Shown one piece after another: positions 11,300 through 30,473 of a DNA stretch of 40,000 bases. Both the position numbers and the translations under genes were made by a program. How positions within the stretch are numbered: position 1 is the first letter of the stretch; each line of letters starts with the position of its first letter. The DNA comes from Acidimicrobiales bacterium (GTDB taxonomy: Bacteria > Actinomycetota > Acidimicrobiia > Acidimicrobiales > AC-14). The stretch spans positions 111,535 to 151,534 of the forward strand of contig JAODBK010000049.1 of the NCBI GenBank assembly GCA_025463925.1, given 5' to 3'. The notes under the pieces are model-generated. The model did not search any database. It was not told the DNA's origin and worked only from the letters and a program-made list of their open reading frames with translations.

Positions 11300-13346
11300 A
11301 CGCGAAGACCGCGCCGCCGCCGTCGGGCGGCTGGTCGGCCCAGATGCGGCCGCCCGCCAGCTCGGCGTAGCGGCGCGCCACCGCCAGGCCGACGCCGGTG
11401 CCGCGGTGGCCCGGCACCGTCACCAGCTGGACGAACCGTTCGAAGATGCGCTCCTCCTCGCCAGGAGGCACCCCGATGCCGTGATCGCGCACCCGCACCT
11501 CGACCTCGTCGCCGGCCCGCCTGACGGACACCTCGATCCGGGTGCCGGCGGCCGAGAACTTGGCGGCGTTGGTCAGCAGGTTCGAGACGATGCGGTCGAG
11601 GGCCTGGGGATCCGTCCACGCCACGAGCGCCGGCGGACCTTCGACGACCACGGTGTAGGCCGCGAGCAGCGCGCCCAGGCCGTCGGCGGTTCGGCGCAGC
11701 GACTCGACGATCGGCACGTTCTCGGGTGCGAACGCCACGTTTCCGGCCTGGAGCCGGCTGAAGTCGAGCAGTTGCTCGACCATGCGGCCCATGGCGTCGG
11801 CACTCGAGCGGATCCGGTCGACGAACTCGTCGCGCCGATCGCCGTCGAGTTGGTCGTGGTGGTGGCGAAGCGTCTCGGCGAAGCCCGAGATGATCGTGAG
11901 GGGCGTGCGGAGCTCGTGGGACACCGTCGCCAGGAACTCGTCCTTCATGCCGTTGGCGTCGCGCAGGCGGTCGGCCGCCAGTCGCTCCCGCTCGTAGGCC
12001 TCGGCCAGCACCAGCTCGGCGCGCTTGCGGGCCGTGATGTCCCGGGCGAACGCGAAGAAGCCCCAGTCGACATCCGTCGGCGCCGCCCAGATGGTGATCT
12101 CGACCGGGAACTCGTGCCCGTCGCGATGGAGGGCGTTCAGCTCGAGGCGTTGGCCGATCACTTTCGCCTCGCCGGTCGACAGGAACCGCTGCAGGCCCTC
12201 GCGGTGGGCGGCGCGCATCTCGACCGGGATGAGCAGGCCGGCCACCGTGTGACCGATCGCCTGCGCCCGCGTCCAGCCGAACACCGCGGCCGACGATTCG
12301 TTCCAGTCGGTGATCGTGCCGGACGCGTCCATGCCGATGAACGCGTCGGTCGCGGTGTCGACGATGTGCCGGATCCGCTCCTCACTCGACCGGAGCGCCG
12401 CCGCCGCCTCCTCCCGCTCGATGGCCCGGCCGAGCTGGGCGCCGACGTTGGTCATGATCGCGAGCTGCTCCTCGTCGGGTTGGCCCGGGCGGTCGGAGAA
12501 GAACTCGAGGACTGCGCGGACCTCGCCGCCGGCCATCACCGGGAAGGCGGCGGCTGATTGGAGGCCGGCCGCCGCGGCCGCGCCGGCCCGCGGGAAATTG
12601 CCGTCGTGGCGCACGTCGACGATCCAGGCCGCCTGGCGCGACGCCATCACGCGGCCCGGGAGGCCGATGCCGGCGCGGAACACCGTCCCCTCGGTCTCTG
12701 CGACGAAGGCGTCGATGGTCATGCCGTCGGCGATGTGCCAGATCGGTGTCGAGACGAGGTCGTCGCCGACCCGCCGGCACACGTGCCCGACCGGCCAACC
12801 GGCGTGGGCGCACACCGACGTCACGGCGGTGGCCAGCGCCTCGTCGCTGGTGGCCGCCTCGTTGGCGGCGGTCGCGACCTCACGGAGGAGCCAGTTCATC
12901 GCCGCCTGCTTCCGCAGCGCCTCCTCCGACTCCTTGGCCGCGGTGATGTCCACGACCTGCACGAAACGGCAGATCGCGTGGCTGCCGTCGTCGAGCAGCA
13001 GCGCCGTGGCGACGAGCCCCCACACCGCGTCCCCGGAAGGCTGGACGAACCGGGTCTCGCTCCAGAACGTCGGGTCGGACCGGCCCGACATCGTGACGGT
13101 GTCGGCATCCGAGAACGGCGGCGCGTCATCGGGGTGCGTGAGCAGGGCGAACGGGTAGCCGGTGAGCTCGGCCGCCGGCCGGTCGACCAGGGCGGCGAGC
13201 GCGGTGTTGGCCCGGAGGATCTCGCCGTCCAATCCGACCAGGCACATGCCGATCGCGGCGACGTCGAACGTGTAGCCGAACCGCGAATCGGCCGCGGGCA
13301 GCACGTCCAACTCCTCCGGCGATCCGCCTGTCCCCCTACCCGGCAC
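11238..13346 (-). CDS. Soluble sensor histidine kinase, PAS-GAF-PAS-HisKA-HATPase
   Basis: ORF 11238..13346. H-box SHELRTPL, the HATPase end GTGVGLAVARRYAELAGGRIWA, two PAS-like blocks (FDVAAIGMCLVGLDGEILRAN; IVDTATDAFIGMDASGTITDWN) and a GAF-like block between them. No hydrophobic TM segment and no response regulator nearby. Start codon (GTG 13346) is uncertain. Confidence 0.85.
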   Translation of the reverse strand: MPGRGTGGSPEELDVLPAADSRFGYTFDVAAIGMCLVGLDGEILRANTALAALVDRPAAELTGYPFALLTHPDDAPPFSDADTVTMSGRSDPTFWSETRFVQPSGDAVWGLVATALLLDDGSHAICRFVQVVDITAAKESEEALRKQAAMNWLLREVATAANEAATSDEALATAVTSVCAHAGWPVGHVCRRVGDDLVSTPIWHIADGMTIDAFVAETEGTVFRAGIGLPGRVMASRQAAWIVDVRHDGNFPRAGAAAAAGLQSAAAFPVMAGGEVRAVLEFFSDRPGQPDEEQLAIMTNVGAQLGRAIEREEAAAALRSSEERIRHIVDTATDAFIGMDASGTITDWNESSAAVFGWTRAQAIGHTVAGLLIPVEMRAAHREGLQRFLSTGEAKVIGQRLELNALHRDGHEFPVEITIWAAPTDVDWGFFAFARDITARKRAELVLAEAYERERLAADRLRDANGMKDEFLATVSHELRTPLTIISGFAETLRHHHDQLDGDRRDEFVDRIRSSADAMGRMVEQLLDFSRLQAGNVAFAPENVPIVESLRRTADGLGALLAAYTVVVEGPPALVAWTDPQALDRIVSNLLTNAAKFSAAGTRIEVSVRRAGDEVEVRVRDHGIGVPPGEEERIFERFVQLVTVPGHRGTGVGLAVARRYAELAGGRIWADQPPDGGGAVFAFTLPIGSRRQVRAGARGTAR

Positions 13347-13414
13347 GGTCTCGATGGTATGGGCCAGGCTGCATGATGTCGTGACCAGATCCGCACAACC
13401 TGGACGAACGTTGA

Positions 13415-13428
13415 CAGTTCATGAACTG
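13415..13428. promoter_or_regulatory. AT-rich perfect 14-bp palindrome CAGTTCATGAACTG overlapping a TTGACA hexamer
   Basis: Read directly: ttgaCAGTTCATGAACTGgc, in the 117-bp divergent gap between the kinase (start 13346) and the lipoprotein gene (start 13464). Confidence 0.45.
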
Positions 13429-13463
13429 GCTCCGAAGCGAGCCGATCCGGTCGATACTGGTGC

Positions 13464-14114
13464 ATGGCCGCGGGCGGGCGTCGCAGGCTCTGGCGATGGT
13501 TGGTGGCGGCCGCCGCGGGCGCGGCCACGCTGACCGCCTGCACCGGCTCGGGCTACTCCTACGTCAAGAGCTCGTCGACCCGGACCTACTTCAAGCTCCC
13601 GGTGCGATGGCGGCTGTACTCCCGGGAGGACTTCATCAACTCCGAGGGTGCCGCCTCGCTGCCGAAGGACTTCAAGGACCGGTACCCGTTCTTCGTGTTC
13701 TTCGACGGCAGCAAGAGCCCCTCGATCCGCCACGACCTGTCGACCGCGACCGAGCCGTTCGGGCTGGCCCAGGTGCGCCGGTTGACGCTCGACGAGCACG
13801 ACACCTTCTCGTTGCAGGCTCTGCGCAACGTGGTGATCAAGGTGGACGAGCTCTCGAAGACGCCCGGTACGTCGGTGGACGTGCTCGAGTCGCCGAAGGC
13901 GATCCAGCTGCCCCATGGCGTGCACGGTGAGAAGCTCGTGTACACGGTGCGCCCGCCCGACGGGAGCACCTTCAGTGTCCTCCAGATCGGCATGACCGAC
14001 CCGTCCAGCAACACGGTGTGGTTCCTGCTGCTCGGGTGCGAGAGCAAGTGCTTCACCGCGAACCGCCGCCACATCGACGCGGTCGCCGATTCGTGGACGA
14101 TCCGAGAGAAGTGA
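13464..14114 (+). CDS. Lipoprotein of unknown family
   Basis: ORF 13464..14114. Signal peptide with lipobox (WLVAAAAGAATLTAC|TGS). No family recognised. Its stop lies 7 nt before the FtsH-like gene. Confidence 0.7.
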   Translation: MAAGGRRRLWRWLVAAAAGAATLTACTGSGYSYVKSSSTRTYFKLPVRWRLYSREDFINSEGAASLPKDFKDRYPFFVFFDGSKSPSIRHDLSTATEPFGLAQVRRLTLDEHDTFSLQALRNVVIKVDELSKTPGTSVDVLESPKAIQLPHGVHGEKLVYTVRPPDGSTFSVLQIGMTDPSSNTVWFLLLGCESKCFTANRRHIDAVADSWTIREK

Positions 14115-14121
14115 GTAGCCG

Positions 14122-17100
14122 ATGAGCGACGACATCGAGCCGGTCGAGCCGGTCGACCCGGTGGAGCTGATCGAGCCGCCCGAAGGCGACGGCCTGGCCT
14201 GGCCCGACCATGACACGGGCCCCACCCCGCCCGGCGGGATGGCGGACCAGACCCGGAAGCGGATCGCGTTCTGGGACCGGATCAAGATCCTCGTCGCCAT
14301 CGGCATCCTGTGGTTGGTCGTGTTCTGGCAGCAGCTGGCCGACGACCCGATCCTCCCGGTTCGCGAAGCGGCTCGCGACATGCTCCGCAACAAGTGGTGG
14401 ATCACGGTCGTCGCCGCCCTCGAGCTGGTGCGGCAGCTGCACTACGCGATCAGCGAGCGGTCGCCCCGCTGGCACGGGTTCTGGACGCGCGGTGTCTTCG
14501 GCGGCTTCGAACGGCGAACGGGCCGGATCAGCGACTGGAACCGCTACCGCATCGGCCGCGCGATGCGGTTGCTGTTCTTCCTCGCGATCATCGCCGTCAT
14601 CGCCGGCGCGATCCGGCACGAGACGCCGGTGCTCGCGCTCTTCAACCTCCCGGCGCGGCTGTGGCACGCGCTGCCGCTGTTCTTCCAGCTGATCTTCGGC
14701 GCGCTGTTCATCGTGATCGAGTTCGGCGCCCTGTTCTTCCTGCTGTCGCGCGGCGGGGTCGAGACCTACTTCCCGGACGACATCAAGACGCGGTTCAGCG
14801 ACGTCTGGGGCCAGGACGCGGTGCTCGATCGGGTGAAGGAGAACATGCTGTTCCTCGACGACCCCGAGTCGATCGAGCGGCGCGGCGGCTATGTGCCGGC
14901 CGGCATCCTCCTGTGGGGCCCACCCGGAACCGGAAAGGGCCAACCGGTGTCGGCCGACGTGATGACGCCGAGCGGCCCGCGCAATATGGGCGATCTGTTG
15001 CCGGGCGACGAGGTGATGGGCGCGGATGGCCGAACGACCGCGGTGCTCGAGGTCCACCTGCTGGGCGAACGCGACCTCTACCGGGTGTCGTTCAGCGACG
15101 GCTCGTCGCTCCGGGTCACCGAAGACCATCTGTGGCAGGTCCACTCCGAGTACGGCGCGACGAAGGTGATCCCGACGCGGGACCTCGCCGGGCGCCTCTT
15201 CGAAGCCGGCGACCGGCCCCGGTTCCACATCCCGATGACGAAGCCGGTCGAGTTCACGCCACGCGAGCTCCCGCTGTCGCCCTACGTGATGGGAGCGTTG
15301 CTCGGCGACGGCACGTTCCGCCATCAGATCGGGTTCTCGAACGTCGATCTGGAGATCCTCGCCCGCGTCGAGGCCGAGCTGCCGGCCGGCGACGGCATGG
15401 TGCGCAAGAGCGCCGCTGACTGGTCGATCATCGGAGGGGCGACCCGGACGATCGTGAAGGAGCTCGAGCTCTTCGGCCGGTTCTCGCACGAGAAGCACGT
15501 CCCCGCCGACTACCTCTGGTCGTCGATCGAGCACCGGCTGGCCCTCCTTCAGGGCCTCATGGACACCGATGGGCACGTCGACCAACGGGGTGTGGTCGAG
15601 TTCCACAGCACGTCGGAGCGGTTGGCCGAGGACGTCCGCCAGCTCGTCGAGTCGTTCGGCGGCACGTCCCGGATGACGACGAGGTCGACGCGCTATCGCC
15701 ACAACGGTCGGCAGCTCCGGGGCCGCCCGATCTTCATCGTCCGCCTGGCACTGCCGAATGACGTGGTGCCGTTCTGGGTGCCCCGCAAGGTCGAGCGGCT
15801 CCGTCCGCGCACCAAATACTTCCCGAAGCGCCGGATGCTGGCGATCGAGCCGGACGGTCGCGAGGAGGCGCGCTGCATCAAGGTCGACGCGCCCGACCAC
15901 CTCTACGTGACGGAGCGGTTCATCGTCACCCACAACACTCTGATGGCCGAAGCGGTGGCCGGCGAGACCGGGAAGCCGTACGTCTTCGTCGACCCCGGGG
16001 CCTTCATCAACATGTTCATGGGGATCGGCATCATCAAGGTCAAGATGCTGTTCCGGAAGCTCCGCAAGCTCGCGGTGCGGTATGGCGGCGTGATCGTCTT
16101 CTTCGACGAGGCCGATTCACTCGGCAGCCGCGGCATGCTGGCGCCCGGGGGCGGGTTCGGCGGTGGCGCCGGCGCGGCGCCCGCGTCCGGACCCTGGGCC
16201 CACGCACCGTCGTGCAACGGGCTGTCCTACGTCACCCCGGACACCACGGCGCGGCTGCTCCGCGAGGCGATGCCGTCGTCGGGCGACGACGCGCCGCGGC
16301 GGTTCATCGATCGCATGATGCCGATGATGGGCGGTGGCGGCGGCGGCATGGGCACGCTCCAGGCGCTGCTGACCGAGCTGTCGGGATTGAAGAAGCCTCG
16401 CGGCTTCCTCAATCGCATCGGGCGCCGGTTGCTCGGCATGAAGCCCAAGGCGCCGCCCAAGTACCGCATCCTCGTGATGATGGCGTCGAACATGCCCCAA
16501 GCACTCGACGAGGCGCTGCTCCGTCCGGGCCGCATCGACCGCATCTACAAGGTGGGCTATCCGTCGAAGGCCGGTCGCATGCGGACGTACGAGGGGTACT
16601 TCGCCAAGGTCGCCAACAACCTCACCCGCAACGACATCGACAAGCTGGCGACGATCACGCCCTACGCGACCGGCGCCACGATCAAGGACCTCGTCAACGA
16701 GTCGCTGATCAACGCCATCCGGCATGGTCGTGACGTCATCGTCTGGAAGGACGTCATCCAGGCCAAGCAGCTCAAGGAGCTCGGCCCGCCCGAGGACGTC
16801 GAGTACATCGAGCGCGAGCGTCATGCGATCGCGATCCACGAGTCGTGCCACGCGGTCATGGCCTACCGCGTGCGCAAGCACCTCACCATCGACATCGCGA
16901 CCATCGAGAAGGGTGGCACGTACCTCGGCATGGTGGCGTCGATCAAGCCGGAGGACCAGTTCAACAATTGGCGCACCGAGTTCGAGGCCGACATCCTCGT
17001 CAGCCTGGCGTCGCTGGCCGGCGAGCGGATGTTCTTCGACGGCGACAGCTCGCGCGGCGTGTCCGGTGATCTCGAGACCGCCACCACGCTGGCGACGTAC

Positions 17101-17568
17101 ATGGAGGGCTACTGGGGCATGGGCAGCACGGTCGCCTCGCACGGGGTGACCGAGCGGCTGAAGGTGGGGGGCGGGGCCCCGCCGGGCGAGAAGGGCAAGG
17201 CCCGCAACAAGGAGAAGGACCTGCTCGAGGGCACGCTGGGCGGCCGCATCGAGAGCAAGCTGGCCGAGTTGATGGTTCGCACCGAGGCACTGCTCGCCGA
17301 GAACCGGGCCGCGATCCTCGCCGTCGCCCACGCCCTCGAGACGCACAAGACGATGACCGGCGACGACGTCGAGGCGATCATCGAGGGCCGTCCCGGACCG
17401 CTCGTCGACGGCTCGGTCTACCGCGCGTCGTCGTTCCGGCAGGAGGCCGAGGACTATCACGCGCAAGTGGTGGCGGCCCACAAGGCGCACGCCAGGGTCC
17501 ATGTGCCGCTGCCGGTGCTCAATGGCCAGGTCCAGGTCGAGGCGATCAGCGCCCACGACGCCGACTGA
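14122..17568 (+). CDS. FtsH-like membrane AAA+ ATPase / M41 zinc metalloprotease precursor (contains intein)
   Basis: ORF 14122..17568 (1148 aa). Four hydrophobic segments lie in the first ~240 aa. The AAA module shows a split Walker A GPPGTGK/T, pore loop MFMGIG, Walker B VIVFFDEAD, sensor-1 MMASN and SRH LLRPGRIDR. The M41 HEXXH is HESCH (AIAIHESCHAVMAY). Confidence 0.9.
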   Translation: MSDDIEPVEPVDPVELIEPPEGDGLAWPDHDTGPTPPGGMADQTRKRIAFWDRIKILVAIGILWLVVFWQQLADDPILPVREAARDMLRNKWWITVVAALELVRQLHYAISERSPRWHGFWTRGVFGGFERRTGRISDWNRYRIGRAMRLLFFLAIIAVIAGAIRHETPVLALFNLPARLWHALPLFFQLIFGALFIVIEFGALFFLLSRGGVETYFPDDIKTRFSDVWGQDAVLDRVKENMLFLDDPESIERRGGYVPAGILLWGPPGTGKGQPVSADVMTPSGPRNMGDLLPGDEVMGADGRTTAVLEVHLLGERDLYRVSFSDGSSLRVTEDHLWQVHSEYGATKVIPTRDLAGRLFEAGDRPRFHIPMTKPVEFTPRELPLSPYVMGALLGDGTFRHQIGFSNVDLEILARVEAELPAGDGMVRKSAADWSIIGGATRTIVKELELFGRFSHEKHVPADYLWSSIEHRLALLQGLMDTDGHVDQRGVVEFHSTSERLAEDVRQLVESFGGTSRMTTRSTRYRHNGRQLRGRPIFIVRLALPNDVVPFWVPRKVERLRPRTKYFPKRRMLAIEPDGREEARCIKVDAPDHLYVTERFIVTHNTLMAEAVAGETGKPYVFVDPGAFINMFMGIGIIKVKMLFRKLRKLAVRYGGVIVFFDEADSLGSRGMLAPGGGFGGGAGAAPASGPWAHAPSCNGLSYVTPDTTARLLREAMPSSGDDAPRRFIDRMMPMMGGGGGGMGTLQALLTELSGLKKPRGFLNRIGRRLLGMKPKAPPKYRILVMMASNMPQALDEALLRPGRIDRIYKVGYPSKAGRMRTYEGYFAKVANNLTRNDIDKLATITPYATGATIKDLVNESLINAIRHGRDVIVWKDVIQAKQLKELGPPEDVEYIERERHAIAIHESCHAVMAYRVRKHLTIDIATIEKGGTYLGMVASIKPEDQFNNWRTEFEADILVSLASLAGERMFFDGDSSRGVSGDLETATTLATYMEGYWGMGSTVASHGVTERLKVGGGAPPGEKGKARNKEKDLLEGTLGGRIESKLAELMVRTEALLAENRAAILAVAHALETHKTMTGDDVEAIIEGRPGPLVDGSVYRASSFRQEAEDYHAQVVAAHKAHARVHVPLPVLNGQVQVEAISAHDAD
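14938..15936 (+). mobile_element. Intein (333 aa) with LAGLIDADG homing-endonuclease domain, class-3-type W-C-T signature
   Basis: Excising 14938..15936 joins GPPGTGK to TLMAEAVAGE, giving a canonical P-loop. Block B is LRVTEDHLW. LAGLIDADG motifs are MGALLGDGT and LLQGLMDTDGHV. Block F is ARCIKVDAPDHLYV and block G is FIVTHN followed by +1 Thr. The N-terminal junction is inferred from P-loop logic and is uncertain by about 2 codons. Confidence 0.85.
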
Positions 17569-17577
17569 GCCGGCCGC

Positions 17578-18432
17578 TTGGCGCTCACCGTCGTCGTCCT
17601 CGCCGCCGGTCTCGGCCGCCGGTTCGGCGGGGTCAAGCAGCTGGCCGAGGTCTTCCCGGACGGGCGGACGGTGATCGCCCGCAGCATGGAGCACGCGGCG
17701 CGCGCCGGTTTCGAGCGGGCCGTCGTGATCGTGCGGTCGGACATCGCGGGACTGCTGGCCGACGACGTCCGCGTGCATTGGCCGGCGGACATCGCGGTCG
17801 AGTACGTCGAGCAGGACCGCGACCCGGCCTCGATCGCGGCCGAGCGCGAGCACGGCCGCACCAAGCCCTTGGGCACGGCCCATGCGGTGCTGGCGGCCGC
17901 CGACCGGCTCGACGGGCCGTTCGCGGTCTTCAACGCCGACGACCTCTACCGCGCCAATCCGGTCGCGGCCATCGCCGGTCAGCTGCGCGATGGTGACGGC
18001 CACGCGGTGATGGGCTTCGACGTGGCGCGGACACTGCTGACCGACCGCCCGGTCACGCGCGGCCTGTGCCGCACCGACGCCGCCGGCCGCCTGTCGGCGA
18101 TCGAGGAGGGGACGGTCGGGCGCGGCGAAGATGGCCGCCTGACGTGGGCGGCGCCGGGTGGCGCGCCGGTGACGCTCGCCGGAACCGAGCCGGTGTCGAT
18201 GAACCTCTGGGCGTTCGCGCCGTCGATCCTCGGCCGGCTGGCCATCGCGGTCGACGAGTTCATGGCATCCGGGCGGGTCGCGAGCGGCGACGAGGTGCTC
18301 CTGCCGAGCGTGGTCGGCCGGATGGTGGCCGACGAGCCGGTCCGGGTGTTGCGCACCGGCGAATCGTGCCTCGGCGTCACGTACCGGGAGGACATCCCGT
18401 TGCTGGTCGAAGCGCTGGCTTCGGAGCGCTGA
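17578..18432 (+). CDS. Sugar-1-phosphate nucleotidyltransferase-like protein
   Basis: ORF 17578..18432 (TTG start, 9 nt after the ftsH-like stop). N-terminal VVVLAAGLGRRFGG (GxGxR nucleotide loop), plus KPLGTAHAV and FNADDLY. Confidence 0.75.
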   Translation: MALTVVVLAAGLGRRFGGVKQLAEVFPDGRTVIARSMEHAARAGFERAVVIVRSDIAGLLADDVRVHWPADIAVEYVEQDRDPASIAAEREHGRTKPLGTAHAVLAAADRLDGPFAVFNADDLYRANPVAAIAGQLRDGDGHAVMGFDVARTLLTDRPVTRGLCRTDAAGRLSAIEEGTVGRGEDGRLTWAAPGGAPVTLAGTEPVSMNLWAFAPSILGRLAIAVDEFMASGRVASGDEVLLPSVVGRMVADEPVRVLRTGESCLGVTYREDIPLLVEALASER

Positions 18433-18434
18433 GA

Positions 18435-19376
18435 TTGGAGCCGTACGGCGACGGTCACATCCACGACACGTACCTCGACGTCACGCCCGACGGCCGGGTG
18501 CTGATCCAGCGGCTCAACACCGACGTGTTCGCCGACCCGGGCGCGCTGATGCGCAACGTCTTCACCGTCGTCGACCACGTCCGCCCGCCGTTCACGGTCT
18601 TCCGCAACTGGACCGATCGCGCCGGCGTGACGTGGCGCGCCATCTCGTTTGTCGAGGGCACGCGGGCGCCCGACCCGGTGGTGACGGTGATCGACGCCGG
18701 CGCCGTCGGGCGCGCCATCGGCGCGTTCCACGGCGCCGTGGCCGACCTCGACCCCGACTGGCTCGAGGTCCTGTTGCCGGGCTTCCACGACCCGGCGGCG
18801 CGGTGGCGCGAGCTCGAGCGGGTCGCCGCCGCGAGCGAGCGGGCTGACGCGACGGAGGAGCTCGACCGGCTGGCGGCGCACCGCCACCTCGCCCACGTGC
18901 CCACGGCGTGGCTGCCGCCAGCCGTGCCCGTTCGGGTCGCCCACTTCGACGCGAAGGCGGCCAACGTGCTGCTGGACGTCGAGACCGGAGCGCCGGTGAC
19001 GGTCGTCGACCTCGACACCGTGATGCCGGGGTCGTGGCTCTGGGACATCGGCGACATGGTGCGCAGCACCGCGGCGACGGCGGTCGAGGACGATCCGCAC
19101 GGCATGGCGATGGATCCCGAGAAGTGGCATGCCGTGGTGTCCGGCTACCTCCACGTCGCCGGCGATCTGCTGACCGACGCCGAGCGGGAAGCCATTCCGG
19201 ACGCCGGACCGGCGGTGACGTGGGAGCAGGCGGTGCGGTTCCTCACCGACCATCTGGCCGGCGACACCTACTACCGGGTGACCCGGCCCGGTCACAACCT
19301 CCTCCGGGCCCGCGCGCAGCTCGCGTTGCTCGAGTCCATGGAGGCGCAGCGGTCGGCCATGATGCTGCCCCGATGA
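18435..19376 (+). CDS. NahK-like anomeric sugar kinase (APH fold)
   Basis: In-frame part of ORF 18066..19376. LEPYGDGHIHDTY resembles the EPYGDGHINTTY loop of N-acetylhexosamine 1-kinase. The catalytic loop is HFDAKAANVLLD (HxDxKxxN) and the metal site is VVDLDTV. The TTG 18435 start, 3 nt after the previous stop, is a guess. Confidence 0.7.
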   Translation: MEPYGDGHIHDTYLDVTPDGRVLIQRLNTDVFADPGALMRNVFTVVDHVRPPFTVFRNWTDRAGVTWRAISFVEGTRAPDPVVTVIDAGAVGRAIGAFHGAVADLDPDWLEVLLPGFHDPAARWRELERVAAASERADATEELDRLAAHRHLAHVPTAWLPPAVPVRVAHFDAKAANVLLDVETGAPVTVVDLDTVMPGSWLWDIGDMVRSTAATAVEDDPHGMAMDPEKWHAVVSGYLHVAGDLLTDAEREAIPDAGPAVTWEQAVRFLTDHLAGDTYYRVTRPGHNLLRARAQLALLESMEAQRSAMMLPR

Positions 19377-30398: not shown

Positions 30399-30473
30399 GG
30401 CGGCGTGGCCGAGTGGTTTAGGCAAGGGCCTGCAAAGCCCTGTACACCGGTTCGATTCCGGTCGCCGCCTCCA
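30399..30473 (+). tRNA. tRNA-Cys (anticodon GCA), CCA encoded
   Basis: Manual fold. Acceptor GGCGGCG/CGCCGCC, D arm GCC...GGC, anticodon stem AGGGC/GCCCT with loop CU-GCA-AA, 4-nt variable region, T arm ACCGG-UUCGAUU-CCGGU, discriminator U73, then CCA. Confidence 0.85.

Follow-up and report, generated by a model that had tools for sequence, protein, structure and literature searches.

The question raised by this locus is what interrupts the nucleotide-binding loop of a membrane protease gene in an Acidimicrobiales bacterium. The gene lies in a stretch of 40,000 nucleotides (assembly GCA_025463925.1, contig JAODBK010000049.1, positions 111,535 to 151,534 of the forward strand), referred to here as the window, and encodes an FtsH-like AAA+ protein of 1148 amino acids (aa). 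Its Walker A loop, GPPGTGK/T, is split between Lys and Thr by an in-frame insert of exactly 333 aa (the slash marks a splice junction here and below). The insert is very probably a bifunctional class 3 intein, formed by a Hint splicing domain and a nested two-motif LAGLIDADG endonuclease, located in the Walker A of a chromosomal membrane FtsH-like protease and splicing by the route proposed below.

The boundaries of the insert (14938-15936), as placed in the initial annotation of this DNA, held to the base on translation, and so did the codons singled out there. The reading across it is ...ILLWGPPGTGK, then GQPVSADV...(333 aa)...ERFIVTHN, then TLMAEAVAGETGKPYVF. Gly1 is encoded by GGC (14938-14940), Trp66 by TGG (15133-15135), Cys313 by TGC (15874-15876), Thr331 by ACC (15928), His332 by CAC and Asn333 by AAC, followed by ACT (15937-15939) for Thr+1, the first residue of the C-extein. 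Removal of the insert in silico yields ...ILLWGPPGTGKTLMAEAVAGETG... and restores the host P-loop stretch GPPGTGKTLMAE, the exact AAA loop that had been predicted and that is also found in intein-free orthologues. In Pfam searches the AAA domain is split by the insert and is followed by AAA_lid_3 and Peptidase_M41. The insert itself matches LAGLIDADG_3 (PF14528; 45.6 bits vs. a cut-off of 22.5) and Hom_end, with weak, sub-threshold matches to Hint and Hint_2. As a sequence, it matches inteins far beyond chance.

The intein-free state of the gene was identified with the spliced 815-aa extein as query. Its orthologues have 64-72% identity, and an uninterrupted GPPG[TA]GKTLMAE is present in 118 of the 120 best matches. 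The remaining two are the window protein itself, found in public data at 100% identity as 'MAG: ATPase central domain protein [Acidimicrobiales bacterium]', and P0235, with an insert at the same place. Of the related genome loci fetched, 24 are also uninterrupted (GPPG[TA]GK-TL[MI]AE), and the contiguous GKT anticipated for orthologues without the insert was thus recovered in proteins and genomes alike. At the DNA level the intein-less site is highly conserved in those 24 loci, with GGnCCnCCnGGnACCGGCAAG and ACSCTGATGGCCGAGGCGGT on its two sides. The intein is present in only about one of every 25 such loci fetched.

Class 3 inteins are defined by a first residue that is not a nucleophile, in covariation with a Trp-Cys-Thr (WCT) triplet and with Thr or Ser at position +1, and most of them are located in the P-loop of ATPases (PMC2807308). 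All the sequence tests applied assign the insert to this class. Blocks A, B, F and G, the C-terminal His-Asn and Thr+1 were all identified in alignments. Gly1 is non-nucleophilic, and W66, C313 and T331 fall on B:12, F:4 and G:5 when aligned to the prototype of phage Bethlehem and to the solved inteins 6BS8 and 6RIX/6RIY, as had been claimed for the triplet. C313 is the only Cys of the intein. Conservation was counted in an alignment of 83 full-length intein homologues: B:10 His, B:12 Trp and the penultimate His are each present in 81, G:5 Thr in 79, F:4 Cys in 78 and the last Asn in 76. Position 1 is Ala in 58, Gly in 7, Ser in 3 and Cys in 2, with no Thr among the residues listed; position -1 is Lys in 63, and position +1 is Thr in 49 and Ser in 29.

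The class is assigned from sequence signatures, which is what can be said for splicing by another route, either direct attack by Thr+1 (class 2, KlbA-like) or class 1 chemistry from a boundary at Ser5. Such a route is very unlikely: class 2 inteins lack the WCT triplet (PMC2807308) that the window intein has at the aligned positions, homologues place Ala1 or Gly1 directly after the P-loop Lys, and use of the F:4 Cys is common to the experimentally studied relatives nearest in sequence (PMC2807308, PMC6195587, PMC7664689). Assignment to class 2 (KlbA type) was rejected on the presence of the triplet, and an N-terminal boundary at Ser5 was rejected because it leaves GKGQPV-TLMAE and destroys the GKT conserved in 118 of 120 orthologues.

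A protein search with the intein alone gave hundreds of matches (expect value, E, down to 1e-73), with PhoH, DnaB, terminase large subunit, Snf2 and dCTP deaminase among the hosts. No protein among the matches listed was longer than 583 aa, and the same-site carriers were found with the extein-alone and full-precursor queries. Matches to the intein also include 856 phage records, of which 299 are from mycobacteriophages. Outside the FtsH-like family, the nearest relatives are the class 3 inteins that bacteria and phages carry in PhoH, DnaB, terminase, Snf2 and dCTP deaminase, with full-length identities of 31-42%. Most of them are also located after the P-loop Lys and before Thr or Ser, in different hosts, whereas the FtsH-like inteins form a tight group of their own with 53-89% mutual identity and invariant Gly1. 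Many close relatives (e.g. P0075, P0078, P0085 and P0092) are found in dCTP deaminase, which is not a P-loop ATPase, and therefore the intein clade is not confined to GK/T or GK/S sites.

The class 3 prototype, known as the Bethlehem 'DnaB' intein, was extracted from the phage genome and is located in gp10, annotated as terminase large subunit; its flanks VSQDQ/TKNTF, Pro1 and the whole residue numbering reproduce PMC2807308. Bethlehem gp51, annotated 'may contain intein', was rejected as the prototype, being a different and unrelated intein. The prototype and the window intein align end to end (E 7e-29, 27% identity) and both contain a LAGLIDADG endonuclease. Bethlehem H65, W67, K319, C320, I321 and D324 correspond to window H64, W66, R312, C313, I314 and D317, and H328, F330, T339, H340, N341 and T+1 to H321, Y323, T331, H332, N333 and T+1; every residue found important by mutagenesis in the Bethlehem intein (PMC2807308) has a counterpart here. 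The prototype differs in having Pro1, 341 aa and a phage DNA-packaging ATPase as host, interrupted after Gln, in contrast to Gly1, 333 aa and a chromosomal membrane protease interrupted after the P-loop Lys.

Among solved structures, the best sequence matches are to two class 3 DnaB inteins, Msm DnaBi1 of Mycobacterium smegmatis (6BS8) and MchDnaB-1 of M. chimaera (6RIX/6RIY), with E of 1e-10 to 5e-10. In these alignments HLW is paired with HQW, RCIKVDAPDHLY with RCVEVDNPAHLY, and THN with THN, HxW, RC..VD.P.HLY and THN being common to them and to the window intein. Msm DnaBi1 is likewise inserted in an ATPase P-loop (PMC6195587). Unlike the window intein, both are mini-inteins without endonuclease, with Ala1 and a replicative helicase as host, and with Ser+1 (stated for DnaBi1). 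In Msm DnaBi1 position B:7 is Asp, and a second Cys (Cys48) takes part in a redox trap, whereas the window intein has Thr at B:7 and a single Cys.

An AlphaFold (AF2) model of the intein, built from a 65-sequence alignment, has a predicted local distance difference test score (pLDDT) of 97.2 and a predicted template modelling score (pTM) of 0.93. Intein structures were matched to it by Foldseek at probability 1.00, consistent with a predicted Hint fold. The best whole-model matches are PI-SceI-type intein endonucleases, over both domains (template modelling score, TM, 0.71-0.75; PI-SceI 0.74), and among mini-inteins the class 3 DnaB inteins match best (TM 0.79-0.86, normalised to the target). 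PI-SceI and the VMA-type inteins have the same architecture of Hint with nested double-motif LAGLIDADG, and their host is also an ATPase, but they belong to class 1 (Cys1, Cys+1), have 13-15% identity to the window intein and contain an extra DNA-recognition region.

The route of splicing is proposed by homology to experimentally dissected class 3 inteins. The precursor would be a single 1148-aa chain with an inactive ATPase, and no nucleotide binding is expected because its P-loop is interrupted; in Pyrococcus horikoshii RadA a P-loop intein disrupts ATPase function (PMC6195587). Cys313 (F:4), helped by His64 and Trp66, would attack the Lys272-Gly1 peptide bond and form the thioester branched intermediate of block F. 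The N-extein would be transferred to the side-chain oxygen of Thr+1 as a branched ester at block G, and cyclisation of Asn333, assisted by His332, would release the intein. An O-to-N acyl shift would then leave the native GPPGTGKT P-loop in an 815-aa protease, with GPPGTGK-TLMAEAVAGETGK as the predicted junction peptide.

The element is not unique to the window: this intein occurs at the identical site in at least 20 other FtsH-like proteins. With the full precursor as query, 17 protein clusters were identified in which this P-loop site has an insert, one of them being the window's own; further carriers are the genome locus L001 and three metagenome loci. A scan of metagenomes with the N-junction pattern gave four loci, three of them with complete inteins, a number too small for prevalence statistics. 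Gly1, TEDHLW, RC and VTHN do not vary among the 17 same-site inteins aligned. Their length is 333 aa in 12, 334-336 aa in 4 and 248 aa in the last one, P0254. Both LAGLIDADG motifs are kept in 16; in P0254 both are decayed and about 85 endonuclease residues are gone, with every splicing block intact. This is the pattern that would be expected if splicing were indispensable and the endonuclease dispensable, and P0254 looks like a natural intermediate towards a mini-intein. In the close pair P0241/P0243 the ratio of nonsynonymous to synonymous substitution rates (dN/dS) is 0.12 across the entire intein and likewise 0.12 across its endonuclease part, with 0.13 and 0.09 in the two Hint parts and 0.14 in the N-extein. 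This pair was relied on instead of the comparisons of the window intein with its relatives, where values of 0.27-0.43 are unreliable, with dS near saturation and a guanine plus cytosine content at third codon positions (GC3) of about 92%.

Several points weigh against a working bifunctional class 3 intein. Gly1 is a minority first residue in this intein family, and we know of no class 3 intein with Gly1 whose splicing has been tested. The sole Gly1 intein in the 2009 InBase set analysed by Tori et al. had a WDT triplet (PMC2807308) and was later described as a pseudogene (PMC3196547). Position B:7 is Thr here vs. Asp in Msm DnaBi1; it is variable in the 83-sequence alignment, and the prototype Bethlehem intein tolerates S62A (PMC2807308). 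The case for splicing, for a branched intermediate at block F and for cleavage of DNA is read from sequence throughout, in this intein as in its same-site relatives. The endonuclease could be conserved for another reason, and the comparison of intein and extein identities (Spearman 0.71) gave no direct sign of recent homing or transfer.

Taken to the extreme, the insert would be a dead, non-splicing remnant and the gene a pseudogene or a non-functional precursor, as with the intein of Arthrobacter FB24 Arth_1007. That Gly1 has been seen before in a pseudogene intein (PMC2807308, PMC3196547) and that so few of the related genome loci carry the element would fit, but all the catalytic residues are present and invariant in 17 diverged same-site inteins, the exteins of the carriers keep every AAA and M41 motif at 50-93% mutual identity, dN/dS in the close pair is 0.12-0.14 for intein and extein, and the endonuclease-decayed relative retains its splicing blocks. 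A dead remnant is hardly credible on these grounds, and an intein that splices by the class 3 route continues to be the preferred explanation.

The two LAGLIDADG motifs had been reported with their acidic residues intact, and this description was confirmed here and extends to 16 of the 17 aligned same-site inteins. In the 65-sequence alignment D124 is conserved in at least 90% and D211 hardly varies. The endonuclease fold of the model matches PI-SceI and I-DmoI, as predicted for a double-motif LAGLIDADG enzyme with its alpha-beta-beta-alpha-beta-beta-alpha core. The freed 333-aa intein is probably an active endonuclease, whose target in intein-less alleles would be the conserved site ...ACCGGCAAG/ACSCTGATGGCC..., a cut that would make homing possible; the candidate intein-less substrate site is GGCCCGCCCGGCACCGGCAAGACGCTGATGGCCGAGGCGGTC.

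It is also possible, if rather unlikely, that the splicing domain works and the endonuclease no longer cuts DNA, the intein persisting by vertical descent only. Pairwise identities of inteins (53-89%) and exteins (50-93%) are correlated, no pair of inteins is much more similar than its hosts, composition is fully ameliorated and one relative is already without endonuclease, all of which would be in agreement with descent. Set against this are both catalytic Asp and both motifs, conserved in 16 of the 17 relatives, the dN/dS of 0.12 over the endonuclease part, a target site highly conserved in DNA, and the distribution of the carriers, which lie scattered on a neighbour-joining tree built from 139 spliced exteins and whose nearest neighbours are often intein-free. 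The guanine plus cytosine (GC) content is 68.5% in the intein and 68.2% in the extein, and GC3 is 92% and 93-95%, respectively; with the same composition as its exteins, the intein is therefore not a recent arrival. With this host-like composition, a divergence parallel to the host gene and a patchy distribution, the intein is read here as long established in the gene family, lost repeatedly and perhaps spread by homing within it.

A second class 3 site was identified in the relatives P0255-P0258 and P0241 (locus L039:14-4417), 23 residues after the P-loop and 2 before the MFMG of pore loop 1. The inteins at this site read DPGAF/AQPL...HLW...AQCI...IVTHN/T.MFMGVG, with Ala1, and the +1 residue is Thr in the carriers vs. 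Ile in intein-free alleles. The equivalent position of the window, at about 16003-16011, immediately precedes pore loop 1. Both the P-loop and the second-site inteins are present in P0241 (1467 aa). A class-3-like intein at a third position (QCITV...TVTHN/S), directly upstream of Peptidase_M41, was observed in P0117, a protein fragment with the upstream part missing that belongs to a different M41 protease.

The presence of a second class 3 intein beside pore loop 1 in the same host family also bears on a proposal that would add to the preferred explanation, namely that the intein is retained as a switch keeping the membrane protease off until splicing is permitted by redox state, metal or temperature. 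The predicted nucleophile of splicing is a thiol, intein and host are conserved to about the same degree, and there is one documented precedent, as Msm DnaBi1, a class 3 intein of a P-loop, is reversibly blocked by H2O2 through its catalytic Cys118, trapped in a disulfide with Cys48 (PMC6195587). That trap, however, requires the second Cys of the intein, and the window intein has Cys313 only; no second Cys is conserved in the alignment of the 17 same-site relatives. Any gating would need a different partner or direct oxidation. Msm DnaBi1 is reportedly blocked by zinc as well. Most orthologues are without intein, and selfish inteins usually land in conserved functional loops (PMC4760082), which leaves a switch improbable. 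The thiol-gated protease activity suggested in the initial annotation is speculation by analogy. A little more doubtful still is the broader idea that this FtsH-like family, in Acidimicrobiia and other Actinomycetota, has kept class 3 inteins in the P-loop and at pore loop 1, sometimes in both, as post-translational on-switches.

The host had been described as an FtsH-like protease, a description that stands for the domains AAA, AAA_lid_3 and Peptidase_M41 and for the HESCH motif and does not extend to FtsH itself. The FtsH equivalog model TIGR01241 gives 205.8 bits vs. a cut-off of 600, and the host is therefore an FtsH-like paralogue, not FtsH proper, of a family found across Actinomycetota. 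All AAA and M41 motifs are intact in the extein, and the spliced host presents three strong hydrophobic segments in its N-terminal 215 aa. About 80 extra Gly-rich residues (GGGFGGGAGAAP...MMGGGGGGMG) were observed between Walker B and sensor 1, at about 16117-16480 (+), as judged against what we take to be the canonical FtsH sequence and from the gap between the Pfam and TIGR01241 matches. The lengths of the orthologues suggest that this segment is a feature of the family. The coordinates of all these elements are collected in Table 1.

Table 1. Features of the intein-containing protease gene and of the gene directly upstream, in window coordinates.
Feature	Position	Strand	Location, basis or remark
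Precursor open reading frame (ORF), 1148 aa; membrane-anchored FtsH-like AAA+/M41 zinc metalloprotease containing the intein	14122-17568	+	Translation, Pfam
N-extein, 272 aa; C-terminal end is the first part of Walker A, GPPGTGK (14917-14937)	14122-14937	+	Translation
Class 3 intein, 333 aa, Gly1 to Asn333	14938-15936	+	Translation, homology, alignment, model
Hint block A GQPVSADVMTPSG; Gly1 without nucleophilic side chain	14938-14976	+	Gly1 invariant in 17 aligned same-site inteins
Hint block B GSSLRVTEDHLWQV; Thr61 = B:7, His64 = B:10, Trp66 = B:12	15100-15141	+	Aligned to Bethlehem His65/Trp67 and to HxW of 6BS8/6RIX
LAGLIDADG motif 1 YVMGALLGDGT; putative catalytic Asp124 at 15307-15309	15283-15315	+	Pfam, alignments
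LAGLIDADG motif 2 LLQGLMDTDGHV; putative catalytic Asp211 at 15568-15570	15544-15579	+	Pfam, alignments
Hint block F EARCIKVDAPDHLYVT; Cys313 = F:4, predicted branch-point nucleophile	15865-15912	+	Alignment to Bethlehem intein
Hint block G RFIVTHN; Thr331 = G:5, His332, Asn333	15916-15936	+	Translation, alignments
C-extein, 543 aa; Thr+1 at its start completes Walker A (GKT)	15937-17565	+	Translation
Pore loop 1 NMFMGIG	16009-16029	+	C-extein
Walker B VIVFFDEAD	16090-16116	+	C-extein
RPGRIDR	16522-16542	+	C-extein
HESCH	16837-16851	+	C-extein
Lipoprotein-like gene directly upstream of the protease gene	13464-14114	+	Signal peptide with LTAC lipobox; context, not part of the intein

The neighbours of the protease gene are ordinary chromosomal genes: a PAS/GAF histidine kinase, the lipoprotein-like gene, a nucleotidyltransferase and a GNAT acetyltransferase. 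The lipoprotein-like gene has no family match in Pfam or NCBIfam. A homologue is located at the same position in another carrier contig (L040:333-971; 29% identity, E 6e-30), and the gene may thus encode a partner conserved with the protease. From 12000 to 19000 both strands of the window, at 70% GC, are full of long ORFs that overlap in other frames, such as a 626-aa ORF of the minus strand (14053-15933) that overlaps the intein. These are compositional artefacts; the protease frame of the plus strand is the one with the homologues. The only tRNA of the window is a tRNA-Cys (GCA) at 30399-30473 (+).

Class 3 inteins were defined on, and are mostly reported in, helicases, terminases and other enzymes of nucleic acids or nucleotides, often derived from phages. 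FtsH-family proteases were not known as catalogued intein hosts in the initial annotation, and no report of an intein in such a protease was found in the searchable literature, which did not cover the host lists in the supplementary tables of the survey by Novikova et al. (PMC4760082); an unremarked earlier listing cannot be excluded. The public names of the carriers, where given, are 'ATPase central domain protein', 'AAA family ATPase' and 'ATP-dependent Zn protease', none of them labelled as intein-containing. What is new is the host family; the element itself belongs to class 3 and occupies the kind of site most typical of that class.

For annotation, the intein accounts for an AAA domain that is too long and split, and that receives no label beyond 'ATPase central domain protein' in automated pipelines. 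With a single Cys and Gly1, it could also suit a scaffold for protein engineering if splicing is efficient. The finding places a class 3 intein in a chromosomal membrane AAA+ protease, in a family that offers a natural series for the life cycle of inteins and their dependence on the extein, comprising the full P-loop intein, the endonuclease-decayed version, the site at pore loop 1 and the double carrier. Were the idea of on-switches across the family to prove true, single-thiol splicing would be held back by oxidants, metals or temperature and proteolysis would be licensed only when conditions are permissive, a regulatory use of inteins outside DNA metabolism.

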